DNA of 32,000 nt from positions 1 to 32,000 of the forward strand of contig RQZE01000010.1 of assembly GCA_003858585.1 (NCBI GenBank), given 5' to 3'. Below the pieces are notes generated by a model that was given only the letters and a program-made list of their open reading frames with translations, ran no database searches and had not been told where the DNA came from. Within the stretch, counting starts at the first letter, position 1. Every line of letters begins with the position of its first letter. This document shows, one piece after another, positions 3,905-22,438 of this stretch. Source of the DNA: Erysipelotrichaceae bacterium OH741_COT-311. GTDB lineage: Bacteria; Bacillota_I; Bacilli_A; Erysipelotrichales; Erysipelotrichaceae. Both the position numbers and the translations under genes were made by a program.

Positions 3905-4000
3905 AGTTTCACTTCCTTTAATAATTATTGCATTTATTAATAGTGTTTGCAAATAGATAAAGATGTGAAATTTCGTTATAATAATTCAGAGGTGATTTTT

Positions 4001-5566
4001 ATGTTAGTCATAAATCAAATAAAATGTAGTCTCAATCAAATTAATCAATTAAAACAGAGGATTGCTTCAAAGCTAAAAGCACCCCTTGAAGATATTTTGC
4101 ACTATGAAATTTTAAAAGAATCGATTGATGCCAGAAAGGAAGTAATCATTGTTTATAGCTGCCTTGTAAACATCAAGCATGAACAACGTTATCTAAGCAA
4201 ACAAGATGTCAGTTTGTATCATCCAGAAGTATTTTCTATTCCTCCAGCTTTAAAGGAAACTTCACCCATTGTAATCGGATTTGGACCTTCTGGTATGTTT
4301 GCAGCCTTAACCCTTGCACAAAGTGGATTAACACCCATTATTTTTGAACGAGGAAGTCGTGTAGAAAAACGTTTAGAAGATGTCGAAAAACTATGGAAAG
4401 ATGGCATTATAAATCCAGAATCGAACGTTCAATTTGGAGAAGGTGGTGCAGGAACCTTCTCAGATGGAAAATTAACCACTCGTAGTAAAGACTTACGTAT
4501 TCATCATATTTTTGAAATGTTTATTGAGCATGGTGCAAAAGAAGAAATTCGCTACAAACAACACCCTCATATTGGAACTGACTGTCTTGTAGATATTGTA
4601 CGTAATATACGAAATCATATTATAGAGCTAGGAGGAACCTTTTATTTTGATACCAAAGTGGAATCCTTACTGATTGAAAAAGAAACTTGTATTGGTATAT
4701 GTGCAAATGGAAAGAACTACTATAGTAACTATGTGGTATTAGCTATTGGTCATAGTGCATATGATACATTAAAGTCCATCTATACAGATCAAGTATATAT
4801 GGAAGCAAAAGACTTTGCAGTAGGTGTAAGAGTAGAACATCCTCAAAAAATGATTGATAAGAATCAATATAAACAATACTTTAAACACCCTCTTTTAAAA
4901 GCGAGTGAATATCGTTTAACGTATCAAGCAAGTAATGCAAGAGGCGTTTATTCTTTCTGTATGTGTCCTGGAGGTTATGTTGTCGCAAGCAATAGTAATC
5001 ATGGAGAAATTGTTACAAATGGTATGAGTAAATCCAAACGAGATCATGTATATGCAAACAGTGCTATTTTGGTACAAGTTAAAAAAGAAGACTATTATAA
5101 AAGCAGTGTCTTAGATGGCATTGATTATTTAAAAAAGATAGAACAACAAGCTTATCTTTTAGGTGGAAGTAATTATTATGCTCCTTGTTGTAACATCAAA
5201 GACTTTGTATATGATACAAATAACCCTCTGATTTTCAAACCAACCTACTTACCTGGTGTAAAACAAATGGATATGAACTCCTTATTTTCAACATCCATCT
5301 TATTATCACTAAAAGAAGCTCTGCTTCATTTTGATAAAAAAATTCCCGGATTTATTGAACAGGGTGTTATGATTGCCCCTGAAACACGTTCAAGTAGTGT
5401 AGTACGCATTTTAAGAAACGAACAACTAGAAAGCCTTAATACAAAACAATTATATCCTTGTGGGGAAGGTGCAGGTTATGCCGGAGGAATTACCTCAAGT
5501 GCCTTAGATGGTTTAAAAGTCGCTATTGCCATTATTGAAGATATTAACAAAGGAGTAAAACAGTGA
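4001..5566 (+). CDS. FAD-dependent oxidoreductase of the COG2509 type (uncharacterised FAD-dependent dehydrogenase)
   Basis: GFGPSGMFAALTLAQSG dinucleotide-binding motif, an N-terminal SIDARK segment and C-terminal GEGAGYAGGI. The start is moved to ATG 4001, behind a GAGGTGA RBS. Confidence 0.8.
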   Translation: MLVINQIKCSLNQINQLKQRIASKLKAPLEDILHYEILKESIDARKEVIIVYSCLVNIKHEQRYLSKQDVSLYHPEVFSIPPALKETSPIVIGFGPSGMFAALTLAQSGLTPIIFERGSRVEKRLEDVEKLWKDGIINPESNVQFGEGGAGTFSDGKLTTRSKDLRIHHIFEMFIEHGAKEEIRYKQHPHIGTDCLVDIVRNIRNHIIELGGTFYFDTKVESLLIEKETCIGICANGKNYYSNYVVLAIGHSAYDTLKSIYTDQVYMEAKDFAVGVRVEHPQKMIDKNQYKQYFKHPLLKASEYRLTYQASNARGVYSFCMCPGGYVVASNSNHGEIVTNGMSKSKRDHVYANSAILVQVKKEDYYKSSVLDGIDYLKKIEQQAYLLGGSNYYAPCCNIKDFVYDTNNPLIFKPTYLPGVKQMDMNSLFSTSILLSLKEALLHFDKKIPGFIEQGVMIAPETRSSSVVRILRNEQLESLNTKQLYPCGEGAGYAGGITSSALDGLKVAIAIIEDINKGVKQ

Positions 5567-11198: not shown

Positions 11199-11867
11199 CT
11201 ACTTCAAATAATCCTTTAATTCTAAGAAACAATGTTCACGAACATAATGAATTGCTTTATTTCCTTCATGGTCAACAATATCTTTATCTGCACCTTTATT
11301 TAATAAGTAAATAACTAAATCTACATAACCGCCGTAACTAGCTCTCATAAGCGCTGTACACCCTTTATTATCTTTCGCGTTAATATCTGCACCGGCATTA
11401 ATCAAAAAATGAATAACATCCACTTTAAACGCTAAAACAGCTTCTGATAATGCACTACGTCCACGATTATCTTTCGCATTAACATCTGCTTTATGACTCA
11501 CTAACAACTCACATACATCCACATGACCTAAAAAAGCTGCACGCATCAGTGAATTACGACCATTGTTATCATGAGCATCAACATCGGCACCACTTTCAAT
11601 CAATAATTTACAAATATCTAAATGCCCTTTTTTAGCTGCACCCATTAAAGCAGTCTTATTATCTTTATCACGAGCTCGAACATTTGCGTTATTGTCTAAT
11701 AAGAAACGAACAATATCTTCGTACCCACGTTTTGCACTACGCATTAAACCAGTACGTCCATCTCCATTTTTAACATTAACATCTGCTCCCTTTGAAACAG
11801 CCGCACACACTTTGGCAAAATCACCACTTGCACATGCATCAAAAAATTCTTTGTTTGTTAGATCCAT
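11199..11867 (-). CDS. Ankyrin-repeat protein (5 full plus 2 capping repeats), cytoplasmic
   Basis: 33-residue periodicity with G..TALM.AA..G..D.V..LL..GADVNA.D in each unit. AAGGAGG RBS 8 nt before ATG 11867. No signal peptide. The stop overlaps the RBS of the EF-G paralog. Confidence 0.9.
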   Translation of the reverse strand: MDLTNKEFFDACASGDFAKVCAAVSKGADVNVKNGDGRTGLMRSAKRGYEDIVRFLLDNNANVRARDKDNKTALMGAAKKGHLDICKLLIESGADVDAHDNNGRNSLMRAAFLGHVDVCELLVSHKADVNAKDNRGRSALSEAVLAFKVDVIHFLINAGADINAKDNKGCTALMRASYGGYVDLVIYLLNKGADKDIVDHEGNKAIHYVREHCFLELKDYLK

Positions 11868-11897
11868 AATAGTTTCCTCCTTAGTTACAAACAATAT

Positions 11898-15045: not shown

Positions 15046-15753
15046 TCAAACATTATTTAAATATTCTAATACCTTTGACTCATTATGAAGAATCGATTCT
15101 TCTTTTACTTCATAACTATCAAAACTGACATATAATTCGATTTCTCCTACTTTACTTGCATTGGATAATACCTTCACCGCTTCTTGTGAAATTGCTAAAA
15201 CGCAAATATGTGGTACTCCATTTGACCTTGTATCATCTAACGTTAATCCTTTACGATCTTTAATCGAAATAATACGTACATGACTCAATACTTTATCAAA
15301 AATAGGTTGTTCATGTTTCATTGGTAACGATACATAAATATCTACATACTGCCCTTCTACAATTGTATTGCCATTTAATTTATTTAAATCTACCGGCAAA
15401 GAAAAAGTCACTTGATTTTCCTTAAGTAATAAAGAAGGATAATCCGGCAATTGCTTTATATCAAATAAACTTGAAGCATAAAACATACTGCCTTCAGGAA
15501 TGGATGTATAAATATCCGTATATTTACCTAAAAGATCTTCTTTATGTAAAATCACTTGATCAATTTGATATCCTTGCACAACATCAATGTAAGAAATATC
15601 TTCTTCTGTAATTAAACTTCTTGGGGCAATGGTCTTATTGGCAATTGGAATTTTCACCATTTTTATCAAATTCATTTTTAAAATTATTACATAACCATAC
15701 CCTAACAAAGCTATAACAAGTAACATTAAACAAACACTAAATATTTTTTTCAT
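15046..15753 (-). CDS. Membrane-anchored CpaB/RcpC-like protein with a SAF domain
   Basis: N-terminal TM helix. SAF-like segment IANKTIAPRSLITEEDISYIDV...LLGKY...IPEGSMF. Then VTFSLPVDLNKLNGNTIVEGQYVDIYV, typical of the CpaB C-terminal domain. No tad/flp genes nearby. Confidence 0.45.
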   Translation of the reverse strand: MKKIFSVCLMLLVIALLGYGYVIILKMNLIKMVKIPIANKTIAPRSLITEEDISYIDVVQGYQIDQVILHKEDLLGKYTDIYTSIPEGSMFYASSLFDIKQLPDYPSLLLKENQVTFSLPVDLNKLNGNTIVEGQYVDIYVSLPMKHEQPIFDKVLSHVRIISIKDRKGLTLDDTRSNGVPHICVLAISQEAVKVLSNASKVGEIELYVSFDSYEVKEESILHNESKVLEYLNNV

Positions 15754-15798: not shown

Positions 15799-15827
15799 TA
15801 AAAAAAGTAGTGCAAATATGCACTACT
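15799..15827 (-). terminator. Intrinsic terminator of the rnf operon
   Basis: AGTAGTGCA-uauu-TGCACTACT followed by TTTTTTT on the minus strand. The stem overlaps the rnfB stop codon. Confidence 0.75.
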
Positions 15828-16134
15828 AAGGTTTTACATTTAACACCTTTCCATCTGGACCAGGTGTAGAATTTAAATATTCTGCAATTTTTATTTTTGC
15901 ATCCATTTTTGACGGTTTACATAAACTAACCGTATTTGTATCTTGTGATACTAACGCTTCTGCCATCCCCTTACAGCCAGCATAACCACATCCACCACAG
16001 TTAATACCAGGAAGCATAGAGATAACTTGATCAATACGATTATCAATTTCTACATGGAATACGATAGAAGCAACCCCTAAAACAAGCCCCATCAATCCAC
16101 CAACTACCAACATAACTAAAACGGCATTTAACAT
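15826..16134 (-). CDS. rnfB: Short RnfB-like subunit: membrane anchor plus N-terminal Fe-S domain only, with no ferredoxin-type 4Fe-4S domains
   Basis: 102 aa. TM helix, then LPGINCGGCGYAGCKGMAEAL...LCKPS and KIAEYLN, colinear with the first ~100 residues of E. coli RsxB as I recall it. The ORF stops where the CxxCxxCxxxCP domains normally begin. Confidence 0.75.
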   Translation of the reverse strand: MLNAVLVMLVVGGLMGLVLGVASIVFHVEIDNRIDQVISMLPGINCGGCGYAGCKGMAEALVSQDTNTVSLCKPSKMDAKIKIAEYLNSTPGPDGKVLNVKP

Positions 16135-16136
16135 AC

Positions 16137-16319
16137 TTACTCTTCCTCCTTAATATCATGTACTGGATGTACTTCACAAGAAGTAATATTACATCCTTCA
16201 CATTCTAATTTTAAATCTTGACATTCTTTGGGAAGTGGTGTTTTATGATTTAAATAATAGCCTAAAGCATAAAACATCGCTAATATACCAACAAATACTA
16301 TTGCATAAATATACGTCAT
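16137..16319 (-). CDS. Small single-TM Cys-rich protein (60 aa) embedded between rnfA and rnfB
   Basis: TM helix IYAIVFVGILAMFYALGYYL followed by C-x6-C-x2-C-x4-C (CQDLKLECEGCNITSC) and an acidic tail. Translationally coupled: rnfA TAG-T-ATG at its start, and the rnfB RBS AAGGAGG lies within its last codons. Confidence 0.6.
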   Translation of the reverse strand: MTYIYAIVFVGILAMFYALGYYLNHKTPLPKECQDLKLECEGCNITSCEVHPVHDIKEEE

Positions 16320-16320
16320 A

Positions 16321-16896
16321 CTAAATCAATCCTGCCAATCCTGAAAATGCTAGTGCCATAATAGCTGCACACACCAAAGCAATTGGATTACCAATAAATG
16401 GTAATGGAACATTTGATTCATCTAAACGTTCACGAATACATGAAAAGATGTATAGAATTAGAGTAAAACCTAAAGGTACTCCAAATGCACTTGCTAACAT
16501 TTGCCAGAAATCATACTTACTTGAAATATTATCTAAAGCAACATATAACACTGCACAGTTTGTTGTAATCAAAGGAAGATAAATTCCCAATGATTTGTAT
16601 AAAGCTGGAGAAAATTTTTTAATAAACATCTCAGTAAATTGCACAAAAGATGCAATCACTAGAATAAAGGTAATTAAATCCATATATTCTAAATGTAATG
16701 GTACAAGCACTAAATAATACAATGAATATGTAAATATAGATGCTCCAACAATAACAAACGTTACTGCAAACCCCATACCTAAGGCACTACTTGTCTTACG
16801 ACTTACCCCAAGGAATGGACACATACCTAAAAATTTAGATAAGATAACATTATTGATTAAAATCGCTGTTAAGAAAATCGTAAATATCGTTTGCAT
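16321..16896 (-). CDS. rnfA: Rnf complex subunit A
   Basis: 191 aa, six-helix protein. NNVILSKFLGMCPFLGVS motif. The start overlaps the rnfE stop (TAATG). Confidence 0.92.
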   Translation of the reverse strand: MQTIFTIFLTAILINNVILSKFLGMCPFLGVSRKTSSALGMGFAVTFVIVGASIFTYSLYYLVLVPLHLEYMDLITFILVIASFVQFTEMFIKKFSPALYKSLGIYLPLITTNCAVLYVALDNISSKYDFWQMLASAFGVPLGFTLILYIFSCIRERLDESNVPLPFIGNPIALVCAAIMALAFSGLAGLI

Positions 16897-17546
16897 TATT
16901 TTACTCCTTTCTTTTTTGTTTTTGGTTCTAAACTATTTTTGTAAGCCGCTAATGCCGCAGCCAATAGTGCAAAGGTCAAAAAAGCACCTGTTGAAGTTGT
17001 AAACATGGAAATCTTATAATTCTCCGGAATAATACGTAATTGAAAAATCAATTGATCTGTCATTGGATTTGTTAGGTCAATAATACCTGTTCCTAAAACT
17101 TGACGTATCACCGAAATCATAACAAGAGAAAATGTGTAACCTAAGCCCATGCCTAAACCATCCAGCATAGAATCAAAAACATTGTTCTTTGAAGCAAAAG
17201 CTTCTGCACGCCCTAGAATAATACAGTTTACAACAATTAACTGAATAAATACACCAAGAGCATTATAAATACTTGGCATATATGCATGTATTAACATTTC
17301 AATCGCTTTTACAATCGCTGCGATAATAACAATATACACCGGAATACGAATATCATCAGGGATGATATTACGCATTAATGAAATCACCGCATTTGAGACG
17401 ATTAGTACCAAGATAACCGCAATTCCCATACCTAAAGCATTATTTAAAGAAGTAGAAATTGCAAGTGTTGAACATATACCTAAATATAAACCAAATACTG
17501 GATTTTCACGAATAAAACCGGCTGTGAAATTCTTCATTCTATTCAT
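16896..17546 (-). CDS. rnfE: Rnf complex subunit E
   Basis: 216 aa. ENPVFGLYLGICSTLAIS motif. AGGAGG RBS. Confidence 0.92.
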   Translation of the reverse strand: MNRMKNFTAGFIRENPVFGLYLGICSTLAISTSLNNALGMGIAVILVLIVSNAVISLMRNIIPDDIRIPVYIVIIAAIVKAIEMLIHAYMPSIYNALGVFIQLIVVNCIILGRAEAFASKNNVFDSMLDGLGMGLGYTFSLVMISVIRQVLGTGIIDLTNPMTDQLIFQLRIIPENYKISMFTTSTGAFLTFALLAAALAAYKNSLEPKTKKKGVK

Positions 17547-17556
17547 ATCTTACCTC

Positions 17557-18468
17557 CTACTGTCCAGCTGCTTGCAATGCAGCTAACACAGAAGCAATCA
17601 CACTATTACTTGTATAGGTTGCACCTGTAACAAGATCAACTTCATCGTCCATCGTTTTATCGATAAATTGATCTAAATATGTTTGATCTACAGCTTTATC
17701 TCCAATATTTGGAGTATCACCAAAGGTAACCAGTGTAATTGATTTAATCTTTTGATCTTCTATCTCAATCATAAATTCATTTCTTACATAGTCAAAATGA
17801 GAAGAATCACCCTCTAATAGTCCATATCCTTTTACATTTACTTGATATGTACTACCTTCTACTGTAACTTGTGCATCATACACTGACCAATCTTGATTTA
17901 TCAAAACTTTTACAGCTTGCACTTCTTTAGGTTCTTGTTCAACTGTTTCAACTTTTTCAAGACCATTGATTGTATTAAATAAATCTCTAGAAGCATTTAA
18001 GCCTTTTACAACCGCTGTACTTGTAACAGTAGCACCTGTTAAAGTATCATAATTGTCTTTGTTTGTTTTCTTTAGTAGGCCCTGTGAATATTCATCTGTA
18101 AATACACGAGAACCAATTCCATTTGTTTCTTGTTGTTGTAGTTCTTTAAACCCTATAATATTACCTTCATTACTAAAGGCAACCATATAAACAATTGGGG
18201 TTGACGAATTATATCCTACTGTTTCTACTTTAAAAACATACCCTTGTCCTTCGACTTGATATACACCCTTTACTAACCCTGTTTCATCTTTAAATTCCAA
18301 GGCTTTAAATTCACCATTTGGAAATAACAACTCTAAATTCTTTTGTTCAGCAGCAATTGCCATCTTTTCAATGACAGGTGCAGTGATACTATTGACATAA
18401 CCCAAAATGCCCCCGGCAATCGCGCTAACAATTGCTAAAAACAACATTAATTGAACTGTTTTCTTCAC
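17557..18468 (-). CDS. rnfG: Rnf complex subunit G with two FMN-binding domains (canonical domain plus an extra C-terminal one)
   Basis: 303 aa. GTG start behind an AGGTG RBS. N-terminal anchor. First flavinylation motif LTGATVTS (18019-18039). Acidic linker. The second domain ends in VTGATYTS (17608-17628). Confidence 0.88.
   Translation of the reverse strand: MKKTVQLMLFLAIVSAIAGGILGYVNSITAPVIEKMAIAAEQKNLELLFPNGEFKALEFKDETGLVKGVYQVEGQGYVFKVETVGYNSSTPIVYMVAFSNEGNIIGFKELQQQETNGIGSRVFTDEYSQGLLKKTNKDNYDTLTGATVTSTAVVKGLNASRDLFNTINGLEKVETVEQEPKEVQAVKVLINQDWSVYDAQVTVEGSTYQVNVKGYGLLEGDSSHFDYVRNEFMIEIEDQKIKSITLVTFGDTPNIGDKAVDQTYLDQFIDKTMDDEVDLVTGATYTSNSVIASVLAALQAAGQ
17560..17886 (-). repeat. Paralogous FMN-binding-domain coding segment, copy in rnfG (residues 195-303)
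   Basis: Colinear with rnfD residues 380-488. Shared blocks are KGYGLLEGD.SHFDYV.N.F.I.IEDQK, VTFGDTP.IGDK and DEVD....AT.TS.SV. DNA similarity is visible, e.g. TCAAAATGAGAAGAATCACCCTCTAATAGTCCATATCCTTTT versus TCAAAGTGAGAAGCATCACCTTCTAGTAAACCATATCCTTTT. Confidence 0.8.
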
Positions 18469-18477
18469 TTTTTACAC

Positions 18478-19944
18478 CTACTTTCCTGCCTCTTGTAGTG
18501 CTAAAGATACAGCAGCCACCACAGATTTACTTGTAAAAGTTGCTGAAGATAAAGCATCTACTTCATCCTCTAAAGATAAACCTTCATAGATTGATAAATA
18601 GGTGTCATCTACTTTATCACCAATTCCCGGCGTATCTCCAAAAGTAACAAATTTCACAGAAACGACTTTTTGATCTTCAATCACAATTTCAAATACATTT
18701 TTTACATAATCAAAGTGAGAAGCATCACCTTCTAGTAAACCATATCCTTTTGCTTCTACAGTATAGGTATTCCCTTCTACACGTACGATTTTTGCATCAT
18801 ACTTAGCATAATCATCCATTACTTTCATGGTTTCACTAAATGACAAACTTGATGTATCAGTTGTGCCACCAGCAATTTTAATCTCTTTTGCTTCTAATGT
18901 GGTAGAACTAAATCCTATTGTTACAAGACCAATCACCGCAAGAGAAATTACTGCCATCATATTTGTTTTTAACTTTTTAATTTGATTCCCTTCTAATGCA
19001 CGATCAATCGCCGGTGTTAACATATTCATAATCAAAATTGAGAATAATACACCCTCCGGTAAGTTTGCCAACACACGAATCAAGACAGTAATAAATCCAC
19101 TTCCCATAGCAAATAAAATACGACCTGTAATCGAAGTTGGATTTGTAACAGGATCTGTTAACATAAAGAAAGCACCAAACATTGCTCCACCTGTTAGGAT
19201 ATGAAACAATGGATAATACATACCTGTATTACGAACCAATGCAATCACTGTTGCAGAAGCAAAAATAGTACCTAAATACACAAGTGGAATACGATAATCA
19301 ATCACATTACGAATGATTAATACAATCCCCACTAACATAATTAATAACGCACTTGTTTCACCTAATGTCCCCGGATAATTTCCAAGAAACATATTGGTTA
19401 AACCACCAAATTGGGCAATAAATGTTTCGAAAAGATCTGCTTGCATAATCCATCCGGCAGAAGCAAATGATGCTGTAGGTGTTGCTGAAGTCACTAAATC
19501 AGTAACCACAGCAGATGAAAATGAACTAAACACTAACGCACGACCAACACCCGCTGGATTAAAAATATTTTGACCAAATCCACCAAACACCAATTTAGCA
19601 AAAACAACGCCAATAAAGGTACTAGCTCCTACTGCATAAGCAGAGGTATTTACAGGAACCATCAATACTAAAATTAATGGTGTTACCCATGGAAATGATG
19701 TTTTAAAGAATTGAATCGGATCTAACTTTCTTAGTTTTGCATAAGCAAATTCACTTAGAAAAGATACCACAACACTAACAATCAATAACACTATCGCATT
19801 GATACCATATTGACTACCTAACTTAAAACTGTTATAAAGTCCAAACGCATAGATTACCAATAAACCCAATGTAAGTTCAAAAATAATACTCTGTGTCGAC
19901 TTTTTATCACGATAATTCGGAGACGGCTTAAATACAAACTTCAT
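18478..19944 (-). CDS. rnfD: Rnf complex subunit D fused to an extra TM helix and a C-terminal FMN-binding domain
   Basis: 488 aa. The RnfD/NqrB core has FGGFGQNIFNPAG, DLVTSATPTAS and MLTDPVT. The core ends near residue 327. It is followed by the helix MMAVISLAVIGLVTIGF and a soluble domain ending in LSSATFTS (18529-18549). AGGAGG RBS. Confidence 0.88.
   Translation of the reverse strand: MKFVFKPSPNYRDKKSTQSIIFELTLGLLVIYAFGLYNSFKLGSQYGINAIVLLIVSVVVSFLSEFAYAKLRKLDPIQFFKTSFPWVTPLILVLMVPVNTSAYAVGASTFIGVVFAKLVFGGFGQNIFNPAGVGRALVFSSFSSAVVTDLVTSATPTASFASAGWIMQADLFETFIAQFGGLTNMFLGNYPGTLGETSALLIMLVGIVLIIRNVIDYRIPLVYLGTIFASATVIALVRNTGMYYPLFHILTGGAMFGAFFMLTDPVTNPTSITGRILFAMGSGFITVLIRVLANLPEGVLFSILIMNMLTPAIDRALEGNQIKKLKTNMMAVISLAVIGLVTIGFSSTTLEAKEIKIAGGTTDTSSLSFSETMKVMDDYAKYDAKIVRVEGNTYTVEAKGYGLLEGDASHFDYVKNVFEIVIEDQKVVSVKFVTFGDTPGIGDKVDDTYLSIYEGLSLEDEVDALSSATFTSKSVVAAVSLALQEAGK
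18481..18807 (-). repeat. Paralogous FMN-binding-domain coding segment, copy in rnfD (residues 380-488)
   Basis: See the partner copy at 17560..17886. More than half of the aligned residues are identical by eye. Confidence 0.8.
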
Positions 19945-19953
19945 AAATACCTC

Positions 19954-21240
19954 CTACTTCTTTCCCTTCAATGCTAAAAATCTCTTGGCACGACGAACAC
20001 CTTCTGTAACATCTAACTTACTTGGACAAACATACGTACACATACCACATTCAATACATGCATTTACATTTAGTTTTAGCAAGCGATCGACATTTTTAGT
20101 CTTTTCAGCATTGTTAATATTTACAGGCATAATTGCACTTGGACAATGATCAACACATGCCCCACAACGCAAACAAGCCATTGATTTTACTTCTTGATAT
20201 TTTAAAACCGTTAATCCATTATCTGATGCTGTAATGACAAAATTATCATTTGTAATCGCATTACCCATCATCGGTCCTCCAGCAATTAACTGGATGTTTT
20301 CTGTTGTATACCCTTGGCAAAGTTCTACCAAATGACTAACCGGTGTACCAACTCGAACCAATACATTACATGGACTTTTAATCCCATCTCCACTGACAGT
20401 TACAATCTTTTCAACGATTGGTAATCCTGTACGCATAGCTTGTGCTGTTTTAATCGCTGTTGTAACGTTTGAAACAATACAACCTGCTTCAATCGGAAGT
20501 TTATCATAACGTTTTTTCAACACTTCATACACTAAAGTACGTTCCCAACCCATAGGATACACATCCGAAACACCTACAACTTCAATATTAGTTTCATTTT
20601 TAAATAACTCTTTTATACGTTCAATAAACTCTTTTTTCGTTTTCTTAATCGCTATTTTACATGTTGAAGCCCCACTTATACGGAATAATGTTTTAATACC
20701 TAACACCATATCCTCTAAGTTTTCTTTCATATTTAAATAATCACTTGTCAAATATGGTTCACACTCAACCGCATTGATTAATAGTGTTTGGCACCCATCT
20801 GTTTTTACAAACTTAAAGTATGTAGGAAAACCGGCACCACCACAACCTACAATACCCTTTTCTTTTATGAAATTAACAACTTCTTCTTTACTTGCATCTT
20901 CTGATAGAGTTGTTAAGTCTTCTACAACATACTTAAAATCATTTTCAATGACAATATGCTCTGCCATTTTTGTTGATGATGTCATACGTTTTTCAAAACC
21001 CTTAACAACGCCCGAGACACTTGAAAAGACCGGAACATAAAAATGATCATTACGTAATGCCACTACTGTTCCAACTTTTACATAGTCACCTTCACTAACT
21101 TTTTTTTCTAGGAGCGCAGTACCCATCGCTAGTGGTATATAGATTTTATCAACATCTTTACACTTGATAATCTCTTTATGACTCGTTAGTTCTTTATGAC
21201 CTGGTAAATGTTTACTCATAGGTCCTAATAATAAAGACAT
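19954..21240 (-). CDS. rnfC: Rnf complex subunit C (NADH-binding, 2x[4Fe-4S])
   Basis: GCGGAGFPT motif. CLRCGACVDHCP and CIECGMCTYVCP clusters. The start is moved to ATG 21240, behind a GGGAGGAAAG RBS. Confidence 0.92.
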   Translation of the reverse strand: MSLLLGPMSKHLPGHKELTSHKEIIKCKDVDKIYIPLAMGTALLEKKVSEGDYVKVGTVVALRNDHFYVPVFSSVSGVVKGFEKRMTSSTKMAEHIVIENDFKYVVEDLTTLSEDASKEEVVNFIKEKGIVGCGGAGFPTYFKFVKTDGCQTLLINAVECEPYLTSDYLNMKENLEDMVLGIKTLFRISGASTCKIAIKKTKKEFIERIKELFKNETNIEVVGVSDVYPMGWERTLVYEVLKKRYDKLPIEAGCIVSNVTTAIKTAQAMRTGLPIVEKIVTVSGDGIKSPCNVLVRVGTPVSHLVELCQGYTTENIQLIAGGPMMGNAITNDNFVITASDNGLTVLKYQEVKSMACLRCGACVDHCPSAIMPVNINNAEKTKNVDRLLKLNVNACIECGMCTYVCPSKLDVTEGVRRAKRFLALKGKK

Positions 21241-21275
21241 TTCTTTCCTCCCTCTCAATCATCTAAGTACTTGTT

Positions 21276-21325: not shown

Positions 21326-22438
21326 ATGAAAAAAATACTATTTATCCTATTGACAATACTCCTTTTAACGGGATGTCATGCTCCGTTAAAAAAATATTCA
21401 AATATTACAGTCGATGCAGGATTTAATACTTTTATACAATTAATTGCTTATACAAAAGATTCAAAAGACTTTGAAACATATTTCAACCATACAACCAAAC
21501 GTTTTAAAGAATTAAATCAATTGTTCGATATTTACCATGAATACCCTGATATGAATAATCTATATACCATTAATAAACATGCTGGCATTCAACCTATAAA
21601 GGTTCAACAAGAAATCATCGATTTATTACTAAAAGCCCGCTACTTTAGTGAACTTTCCAATGGTGAATTTGATATTACCATGGGCTCTGTATTAAAAATT
21701 TGGCATACATATCGTGAAAATGCTTTGCTTCTTACCGAGGAAAATAAACTGGATGAAATTACACTTCCAAAGATAGAAGAACTTCAAAAGGCTAGTTTAA
21801 AAACAGGATGGGATTTCATTGAAATTGACGAAGAGCAAAAAACCGTTTTTATCAAAGAAAAAGGCGTTAGCTTAGATGTCGGTGGTATTGCAAAAGGCTA
21901 TGCAGCTGAAGTGGTTGCATTAGAATTAGAAGCATTAGGTTTAAAACATGCTTCCATAAATGCTGGTGGTAATATTCGTACTATCAACAATAAGCCAGAT
22001 CATCGTCCATGGTCCATTGGAATTACACACCCTCGTAGTCAACAGCATAATGCAAGTATTGCCTCAATCAAACTAAGTGATTCAAAAGCCTTTGTAACTT
22101 CAGGAGATTATCAAAACTTCTTTATCACAAGTGATTTAAAAAGGTATCATCACATTATTGACAATGATACCTTATTCCCTGCTCAACACTTTTACTCAAT
22201 TACTATTTTAGGAAATGATAGTGGACATGCAGATGCTTTAAGTACAACCTTATTTACAATGGATTATCAACAAGGTTTAGCCTTTATTGAGACTTATAAC
22301 CAAGCTCATCCTGAAGATGCTATCGATGTTATTTGGATTTTAGATGAAAAAAACAAAATTGACACACAATATTCAACAATAAAAGATGGTTTACAAATCA
22401 TATGGACAGCTAATTTAAATGATAAGATTAGCTATTGA
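21326..22438 (+). CDS. apbE: ApbE-family FAD:protein FMN transferase, lipoprotein
   Basis: Lipobox LLLTGC. DVGGIAKGYAAE, SGDYQNFF, HHIIDNDT and ADALSTTLF motifs. GAGGTGA RBS. Divergent from rnfC. Confidence 0.9.
   Translation: MKKILFILLTILLLTGCHAPLKKYSNITVDAGFNTFIQLIAYTKDSKDFETYFNHTTKRFKELNQLFDIYHEYPDMNNLYTINKHAGIQPIKVQQEIIDLLLKARYFSELSNGEFDITMGSVLKIWHTYRENALLLTEENKLDEITLPKIEELQKASLKTGWDFIEIDEEQKTVFIKEKGVSLDVGGIAKGYAAEVVALELEALGLKHASINAGGNIRTINNKPDHRPWSIGITHPRSQQHNASIASIKLSDSKAFVTSGDYQNFFITSDLKRYHHIIDNDTLFPAQHFYSITILGNDSGHADALSTTLFTMDYQQGLAFIETYNQAHPEDAIDVIWILDEKNKIDTQYSTIKDGLQIIWTANLNDKISY

Follow-up and report, generated by a model that had tools for sequence, protein, structure and literature searches.

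What the long C-terminal extensions of two Rnf subunits are, and what they could add to the electron chain on which they sit, is the question raised by an operon of Erysipelotrichaceae bacterium OH741_COT-311 (GCA_003858585.1), which was analysed within a stretch of 32,000 nucleotides (contig RQZE01000010.1, positions 1-32,000; hereafter the window, in which all positions are counted). All six Rnf open reading frames (ORFs) were assigned by Pfam and NCBIfam, giving a six-gene operon for RnfC, D, G, E, A and B (15826-21258) whose order on the minus strand is rnfC, rnfD, rnfG, rnfE, rnfA, an ORF of 60 residues and an rnfB of 102 residues, with apbE divergent. RnfD (18478-19944, minus strand) has 488 residues and RnfG (17557-18468, minus strand, GTG start) has 303, both longer than the corresponding chains of solved structures (304-349 residues for RnfD and 187-237 for RnfG). 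The original prediction had given these lengths and had read the extensions as extra, mutually paralogous modules binding flavin mononucleotide (FMN); the lengths and all of the peptide strings that it quoted are present in the ORFs. The complex is an Erysipelotrichales-type Rnf complex with two extra flavin modules, for which we infer, as that prediction did, a flavin relay function. Comparisons were made with 80 loci from a reference-genome scan, mostly of Erysipelotrichales but including six of Clostridiaceae, annotated by phmmer and an iterated hidden Markov model (HMM) of the module.

RnfD can be divided into four parts, all on the minus strand. The core (residues 1-324; 18973-19944) matches PF03116 at residues 5-319 (E 2e-76) and has its own flavinylation site, DLVTSAT, whose acceptor T155 (codon 19480-19482) is invariant in 61 homologues; Foldseek matched it to 9eri_D, 7zc6_D and 8ahx_D with target-normalised template modelling (TM) scores of 0.74-0.82. 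An eleventh transmembrane helix follows (residues 325-347; 18904-18972), with a hydropathy peak of 2.11 at residues 329-347, and the AlphaFold2 model, built like that of RnfG as a monomer with homologue alignments, places a helix at exactly residues 325-347 with a predicted local distance difference test (pLDDT) score of 88-96. The next part, recognised from the model and from homologues, is a flexible Ser/Thr-rich linker (residues 348-368; 18841-18903), in which pLDDT lies below 50 at residues 357-367 and both length and sequence vary among homologues. The C-terminal FMN_bind module (residues 369-488; 18481-18840) carries the motif DALSSAT with acceptor T469 (codon 18538-18540) and is modelled as a folded alpha/beta domain at residues 369-487 (overall pLDDT of RnfD, 84.6).

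The RnfG protein, likewise on the minus strand, consists in its model (overall pLDDT 91.1) of an anchor helix, a core domain, a linker and a second domain. The core (residues 1-167; 17968-18468) comprises the membrane anchor and an FMN_bind domain with the motif DTLTGAT; it matches TIGR01947 over residues 9-164 and, by Foldseek, 9eri_G (E 2e-8) and also 7zc6_G, and its acceptor T147 (codon 18028-18030) is Thr in 78/78 G-cores. The acidic linker, read directly from the sequence as NGLEKVETVEQEPKEVQAV (residues 168-186; 17911-17967), is where pLDDT falls to 78-80, and the C-terminal FMN_bind module (residues 187-303; 17560-17910) has the motif DLVTGAT with acceptor T284 (codon 17617-17619). The start of rnfG is ambiguous: GTG at 18468 yields the 303 residues used here and fits the MKK... 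consensus of the homologues, and a public gene call begins at ATG 18447 and yields 296 residues.

Scored against the Pfam FMN_bind model (gathering cut-off 22 bits), the RnfD extension matched at residues 418-484 with 41.4 bits and RnfG in two stretches with 84.8 bits, and the four Dxx[ST][GS]AT motifs, ending at T155 and T469 of RnfD and T147 and T284 of RnfG, are all intact, as the proposal of four flavinylation sites had supposed. Judged from these matches, both extensions are genuine FMN_bind domains, which would be flavinylated at the motif threonines. The enzyme that could do so is encoded at 21326-22438 on the plus strand, divergent from rnfC, by an apbE identified as a lipoprotein flavin transferase from its PF02424 match (E 4e-69) and its LPAM_1 lipobox, LLLTGC, again as had been suggested; a divergent apbE adjoining rnfC is conserved in most of the related loci. 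The two extensions share 59% identity and 76% positives over 115 residues (BLASTP, E 4e-45) and 70% identity over 330 nucleotides of DNA (E 1.6e-36), a likeness far above chance, and the claim that they are paralogues of one another therefore holds.

Copies of the RnfG core they are not, with only ~25% identity to it as against 59% to each other. A profile made from both modules and compared with solved structures found 8P2B, the first domain of CbFMN4 (CbFMN4-D1), at E 3.5e-8 and RnfG at 3e-4, and the same domain was the best compact single-domain Foldseek match (target-normalised TM score 0.77-0.84). CbFMN4 is a multi-flavinylated protein in which the Thr-FMN bond is proven by crystallography (PMC10339131). 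From the low identity to the RnfG core and the proximity of 8P2B it follows that the modules fall within the branch of FMN_bind formed by multi-flavinylated proteins, a kinship that the original prediction had sensed. The pseudo-dimeric FMN-bind2 subtype, a ~160-residue domain whose beta-sheet insertions pair two domains (Huang 2024), was also considered and rejected, the modules here having ~115 residues and the small CbFMN4-D1 as best match. Both RnfD (196.5 against a cut-off of 207.05) and RnfG (74.1 against 102) score below the cut-offs of their NCBIfam subfamily models, and the clade is so divergent that RnfG homologues often bear only the generic name 'FMN-binding protein' in public records.

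On which side of the membrane the RnfD module lies is a matter of topology. Canonical RnfD has ten transmembrane helices, and the loops at its two ends bind the cytoplasmic RnfC (PMC11889175). Because the RnfD core of the window ends in the K-rich NQIKKLK and an additional helix comes after it, the module is expected on the outer side of the membrane, as homology to solved Rnf complexes and the positive-inside rule indicate and as had been predicted from the extra helix. RnfG needs no added helix, since its C-terminus is already outside. RnfE of Dielma and Traorella (353-369 residues; L025 12384-13484, L049 1796-2905 and L079 12303-13364) likewise has a core with a K-rich end, which the positive-inside rule assigns to the cytoplasm, and is prolonged by one more transmembrane helix, a linker and an FMN_bind module whose SGAT site is intact. 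This recurrence of the same solution on RnfE, together with the retention of the eleventh helix and a short tail in every module-less RnfD of the clade, supports the predicted outside location of the RnfD module, as does the lipoprotein nature of ApbE.

The original prediction had further explained the pair as a duplication within the operon, which is sound as to paralogy but too simple as a history, the module family spanning ~80 loci, moving among RnfD, RnfG and RnfE and evolving in concert. The modules of the window are 62% identical over HMM-aligned columns and at most 53% identical to any module of another genome, and those of the nearest relative (P0002/P0265, which share a contig) are 70% identical to one another; between the two genomes the modules share 44-50% identity whichever positions are compared, and the cores 64-67%. 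Within operons, copies lying ~930-960 nucleotides apart are identical at the DNA level to the extent of 99.7% (L067), 88% (L002), 77% (L003) and 66% (L013), although positional orthology holds among close species (Proteiniclasticum, Anaerorhabdus). One ancient duplication with positional orthology is thus rejected as the whole story, copies within a genome usually being more alike than orthologues, and the alignments point to gene conversion or re-duplication in episodes (concerted evolution). The extreme case, a Bulleidia metagenome-assembled genome (MAG; L067) whose RnfD and RnfG modules are 99.7% identical over 306 nucleotides and lie 929 nucleotides apart, points to a very recent event of either kind. 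For the window itself a recent gene conversion is unsupported: among 68 identical residues 44 codons are identical where 37.6 would be expected, and the synonymous divergence (dS) is 0.89.

The unstable number of modules, and direct repeats ~0.9 kilobases apart that clearly recombine, as in the Bulleidia case, could be taken to mean that the modules are neutral or decaying duplicates, thrown up by unequal recombination and with no redox role. This explanation is strongly disfavoured and scarcely credible. The ratio of nonsynonymous to synonymous divergence (dN/dS) between the window copies is 0.38 with synonymous sites near saturation, an estimate by which both copies are old and under purifying selection; both fold confidently in the AlphaFold2 models; the flavinylation motif is conserved, with its acceptor Thr kept in 201/202 aligned modules and Ser in the remaining one (75/75 for D-modules, 78/78 for G-cores and 48/49 for G-extension modules, the other being the Ser); and the combination of transmembrane helix, linker and module is found on both RnfD and RnfE.

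In the mechanism that we propose, the core chain would run from the FMN and Fe-S centres of RnfC to the riboflavin and FMN-T155 of RnfD, on to FMN-T147 of RnfG, then to the [2Fe-2S] cluster of RnfA/E and finally to the [4Fe-4S] of RnfB, in a U shape. The entry subunit, RnfC (19954-21258, minus strand; 434 residues from a TTG start and 428 in a public gene call), has the NADH/FMN domain and two [4Fe-4S] motifs, with matches to the Pfam families RnfC_N, Complex1_51K, SLBB and Fer4 and to TIGR01945 (351 bits, over cut-off). Two added modules, flavinylated by ApbE, would lengthen this chain at the outer membrane face, that of RnfD tethered by the eleventh helix and a flexible linker of ~20 residues and that of RnfG tethered at the C-terminus by an acidic linker of ~20 residues. 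The tethered flavins would form a mobile outlet that accepts electrons from the FMN of RnfG or of RnfD and hands them to extracytoplasmic flavinylated reductases, soluble flavins, metals or O2, so that NADH, and whatever reduces the minimal RnfB described below, could be re-oxidised by acceptors outside the cell. It is probable, in our estimation, that the modules are flavinylated and mobile and pass electrons to acceptors beyond the cytoplasmic membrane. An outlet of this kind has been put forward independently for multi-flavinylated RnfG (PMC8238504), and it is supported here by the fact that the module family is common to stand-alone proteins carrying 8-13 FMN_bind modules.

A variant of the same mechanism would have the outer flavins shed electrons to O2 or to quinone- or flavin-like oxidants, as a valve for oxygen and reactive oxygen species that detoxifies or balances redox state in anaerobes and does not feed dedicated respiratory reductases. 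The operon has no linked gene for a dedicated acceptor, and reduced SaFMN3 (midpoint potential, Em, -184 mV) is re-oxidised by dioxygen (PMC10339131). Reactivity with O2 is generic to exposed reduced flavins, however, and the valve is a sub-case of the outlet model from which it differs in the acceptor alone; it appears very unlikely.

The distribution of the modules bears on whether they belong to the core of the complex. A search with full-length RnfD returned more than 100 clusters of 450-770 residues, filed under the names RnfD or 'FMN-binding protein' and coming from Anaerorhabdus, Solobacterium and Erysipelotrichaceae; among the 120 best-ranked, 118 combined PF03116 with PF04205, and an RnfD of 872 residues with four modules was also found. 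The isolated module gave no match as query in a word-indexed homologue search, a limit of sensitivity, and many relatives were recovered with full-length RnfD and RnfG queries and an exhaustive HMMER search. Across the loci there are 0-3 extra modules on RnfD, 0-4 on RnfG and some on RnfE, making 0-5 per operon. Counted over 77 operons as numbers on RnfD and RnfG, respectively, the layouts were 0,0 (16 loci), 0,1 (3), 0,2 (3), 1,0 (14), 1,1 (23), 1,2 (2), 1,4 (2), 2,0 (8), 2,1 (4), 3,0 (1) and 3,1 (1). The one-plus-one layout of the window is not unusual and is the commonest here (23/77, in a sample skewed to fused forms by a query profile made from fused proteins), and multi-flavinylated RnfG was itself published in 2021 (PMC8238504). 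On a neighbour-joining tree of RnfD cores, which carries no support values, near neighbours differ in number (two D-modules in L040 and one in L041; 3,1 in L010 and 1,1 in L012). Since the number varies between 0 and 5 and differs between close relatives, the modules are better regarded as an accessory wire than as part of the core.

Two further features, overlooked by the original prediction and both relevant to mechanism, lie at the other end of the operon. RnfB (15826-16134, minus strand; 102 residues) consists of a transmembrane helix and one [4Fe-4S] domain (PF04060), the Pfam FeS domain being its only one, and lacks the polyferredoxin part that docks ferredoxin; it matches positions 5-92 of the 190-position TIGR01944 model with 67.4 bits (cut-off 68.7). 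All 67 related RnfBs are similarly short (88-135 residues), with four invariant Cys, and the ferredoxin motif CxxCxxCxxxC is absent from every one of them. In Acetobacterium woodii RnfB, clusters B1-B7 dock ferredoxin (PMC11889175), and the RnfB of the window corresponds to transmembrane helix TM1 and the 'B8 domain' of that protein.

The 60-residue ORF (16137-16319, minus strand) lies between rnfA and rnfB, 1-2 nucleotides from each; it encodes an unannotated membrane protein, here termed small60, and is also a gene call of a public assembly. One transmembrane helix is followed by N-x-K-T-P-x-P-x-G-C-E-x5-C-x2-C-x4-C, and homologues with conserved Cys occupy the same position in 66/80 loci. 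No match to it was found in Pfam, NCBIfam or PDB, and an identification as RseC was rejected because the Cys motif of RseC is N-terminal to two transmembrane helices, that is, in the other order. From its conserved position and cysteines small60 is likely to be an extra, possibly unrecognised Rnf subunit, and it may be a new one that binds Fe-S or Zn.

The RnfE (16896-17546, minus strand; 216 residues; PF02508, E 5e-61) and RnfA (16321-16896, minus strand; 191 residues; PF02508, E 5e-57) proteins of the window keep all four cysteines, C25 and C108 in the former and C26 and C114 in the latter, that in Rnf ligate the intramembrane [2Fe-2S] cluster, AE1 (PMC11889175), and 69-70 of 76 relatives have Cys at these positions. 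In the six Clostridiaceae loci, from Proteiniclasticum, Youngiibacter and a MAG (L017, L018, L019, L021, L024 and L030), all four are replaced, by G/S and S in RnfA and by T and S/T in RnfE. These loci encode RnfC, RnfD with its module, RnfG, RnfE and RnfA, and RnfG has an extra module in 5/6 of them, that of L030 being shorter (248 residues) with a single module. Neither rnfB nor small60 was detected at these operons at the phmmer threshold applied to the loci (E ≤ 1e-5), and close reading of L017 and L018 likewise found neither downstream of rnfA. With no route through AE1 and RnfB, the only intact path in this operon is from NADH through RnfC and RnfD to the outer flavins. The Clostridiaceae sequences nest inside the Erysipelotrichales radiation on the RnfD-core tree, which suggests horizontal transfer followed by reduction. 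Together, the Clostridiaceae operon without the AE1 cysteines and a clade without the ferredoxin-docking part of RnfB support the outlet function of the modules.

These comparisons also bear on whether the tethered flavins might work inside the complex, shuttling electrons or serving as a buffer between the [2Fe-2S] of RnfA/E and the FMN groups of RnfG and RnfD, where they would speed or stabilise a long periplasmic hop that normally relies on the movement of a single RnfG domain. That domain must move between RnfA/E and RnfD in the solved Rnf (PMC11889175); flexible tethers are anchored on both of the subunits that flank the RnfA/E-RnfD gap; the operon contains no linked gene for a partner or acceptor; and the branch through AE1 and RnfB is intact in the window. 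A copy number that spans 0 to 5 and changes between close relatives is nevertheless hard to fit to a tuned internal step, the Clostridiaceae keep the modules after the loss of AE1, when no gap is left to bridge, and the nearest kin of the modules are secreted multi-flavin proteins, not RnfG. An internal relay therefore seems rather unlikely.

Fermentative Erysipelotrichales as a rule require sinks for electrons and not sources of them, and this weighs against an inlet, by which the modules would gather electrons from donors outside the cell (reduced flavins or partner organisms, for example) and deliver them to NAD+ or to an acceptor on the RnfB side. The variant without AE1 could use an inlet only to make NADH from outside donors, a role to which the context lends no support. 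Flavin domains can transfer electrons in either direction, and Rnf is generally reversible (PMC11889175), but an inlet is highly improbable on this evidence.

Several observations weigh against the outlet itself. The search for an acceptor gave none: no other FMN_bind ORF occurs within ~10 kilobases of the operon across the 80 loci; and no reductase was found among the larger ORFs of the window that were scanned with Pfam, several ORFs remaining unscanned (a scanned ORF at 3947-5566 encodes a protein dependent on flavin adenine dinucleotide, FAD). The 16/77 related operons without any extra module indicate that the modules are dispensable for the work of the core complex, and the skew of the locus sample towards fused forms noted above must be kept in mind. 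Since the window keeps all four AE1 cysteines and RnfB, a purely internal role is possible there. The AlphaFold2 models are of monomers only, with predicted TM (pTM) scores of 0.65-0.70. The Clostridiaceae variant, finally, is known at the operon only, a second, canonical rnf or an unlinked rnfB elsewhere in those genomes not having been searched for.

Compared with canonical Rnf (A. woodii 9ERI, C. tetanomorphum 7ZC6 and A. vinelandii 8AHX), the same six core genes occur in the same order, rnfCDGEAB, the cores of RnfD and RnfG can be laid over the solved subunits, and the covalent-FMN threonines, the RnfA/E cysteines and the cysteines of the first RnfB cluster are all present. The complex described here has in addition the eleventh helix and outer module of RnfD, the second module of RnfG and small60 between rnfA and rnfB, and it is missing the ferredoxin-docking polyferredoxin part of RnfB.

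Among systems in which flavins are used outside the membrane are the RNF clusters with multi-flavinylated RnfG of Méheust et al. 2021 (eLife, PMC8238504), which likewise have more than one FMN_bind domain on an RnfG within an rnf cluster and for which a second pathway to extracytosolic acceptors was proposed. CbFMN4 and SaFMN3 (8P2B and 8P2A) share the compact Thr-FMN fold, arranged as beads on a string with linkers (Tong et al. 2023, PMC10339131), but stand-alone multi-flavinylated proteins are soluble and secreted with 3-13 repeats, whereas here one or two modules are fused to Rnf subunits. The two-subunit NQR/RNF-like system, an RnfD-NqrF fusion with an RnfG-like protein (PMC8238504, PMC11334425), shares the concept of a one-way path by which electrons of NAD(P)H reach an extracytosolic flavin and is in that respect functionally like the AE1-less Clostridiaceae relatives. 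Its RnfD carries a cytosolic NqrF domain (PF00175) and has lost the flavinylation Thr; the RnfD of the window, by contrast, has no PF00175 match, has an outer FMN_bind domain fused to it and keeps T155, and RnfC, RnfE and RnfA are present.

In Methanosarcina, the combination of Rnf with MmcA offers a precedent for a side-exit from Rnf to extracellular acceptors (PMC8238504; PMC6703419), although that exit is a separate multihaem cytochrome, and here covalent flavin domains are fused to Rnf subunits. A Gram-positive electron exit is provided in the flavin-based extracellular electron transfer of Listeria by PplA, a surface-exposed lipoprotein with two FMN_bind domains flavinylated by ApbE (PMC10979944). 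PplA is a separate protein whereas the flavin domains here are built into Rnf, and the match to the NCBIfam PplA model was marginal (E 0.0027; 16.9 bits against a cut-off of 325). In Listeria, PplA receives its electrons from Ndh2, a quinone and EetA/B.

The RnfG half of the arrangement is accordingly already known in kind, and the layout is common in one order. The fusions to RnfD and RnfE appear to be undescribed: neither these, by way of an added helix, nor interchange of modules, a minimal RnfB, a small Cys protein or an AE1-less variant are reported in Méheust 2021, the 2024 follow-up (Huang et al.) or a 2025 ApbE review, and a full-text literature search, which covered few subscription journals and in which absence is not proof, found nothing on RnfD or RnfE fusions, minimal RnfB or AE1-less Rnf. 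What is new is the design of the RnfD and RnfE fusions, the interchange of modules with concerted evolution, the minimal RnfB and four-Cys mini-protein across the clade, and the AE1-less variant.

Rnf is viewed as a closed circuit from ferredoxin to NAD+, and the clade would show its scaffold to be rewirable into an electron exporter, a candidate link from cytoplasmic NADH to outside acceptors in gut Erysipelotrichaceae (Holdemania, Solobacterium, Erysipelothrix and relatives). The series of 0-5 modules and the AE1-less variant would form a natural set of mutants for dissecting electron flow in Rnf. More speculatively, and with a good deal of doubt, Erysipelotrichales-type Rnf might be the membrane module that powers the arsenals of extracytosolic flavin reductases of gut Erysipelotrichaceae, repurposed as an oxidoreductase between NADH or a low-potential donor and extracellular flavoproteins, of which Clostridiaceae RnfCDGEA could be a stripped-down, one-way version. 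The text of the paper on those arsenals (Little et al.) contains neither 'Rnf' nor 'quinone'.

Some minor observations concern the hosts and the neighbouring genes. Five Erysipelotrichales-type rnf loci (L059, L063, L071, L078 and L080) are on contigs that binning assigned to Methanomethylophilaceae, Paratractidigestivibacter, Waltera, Bifidobacteriaceae or Eubacterium, for which binning contamination seems more likely than a true host of that kind. Directly downstream of rnfB, with a terminator-like hairpin between the two genes, the window encodes an RcpC/CpaB-like protein of 235 residues with an N-terminal transmembrane helix (15046-15753, minus strand), and roughly half of the related loci have a homologue after rnfB. 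A protein of 231 residues encoded at 11199-11894 on the minus strand consists almost wholly of ankyrin repeats (Pfam Ank_2, E 1e-41).

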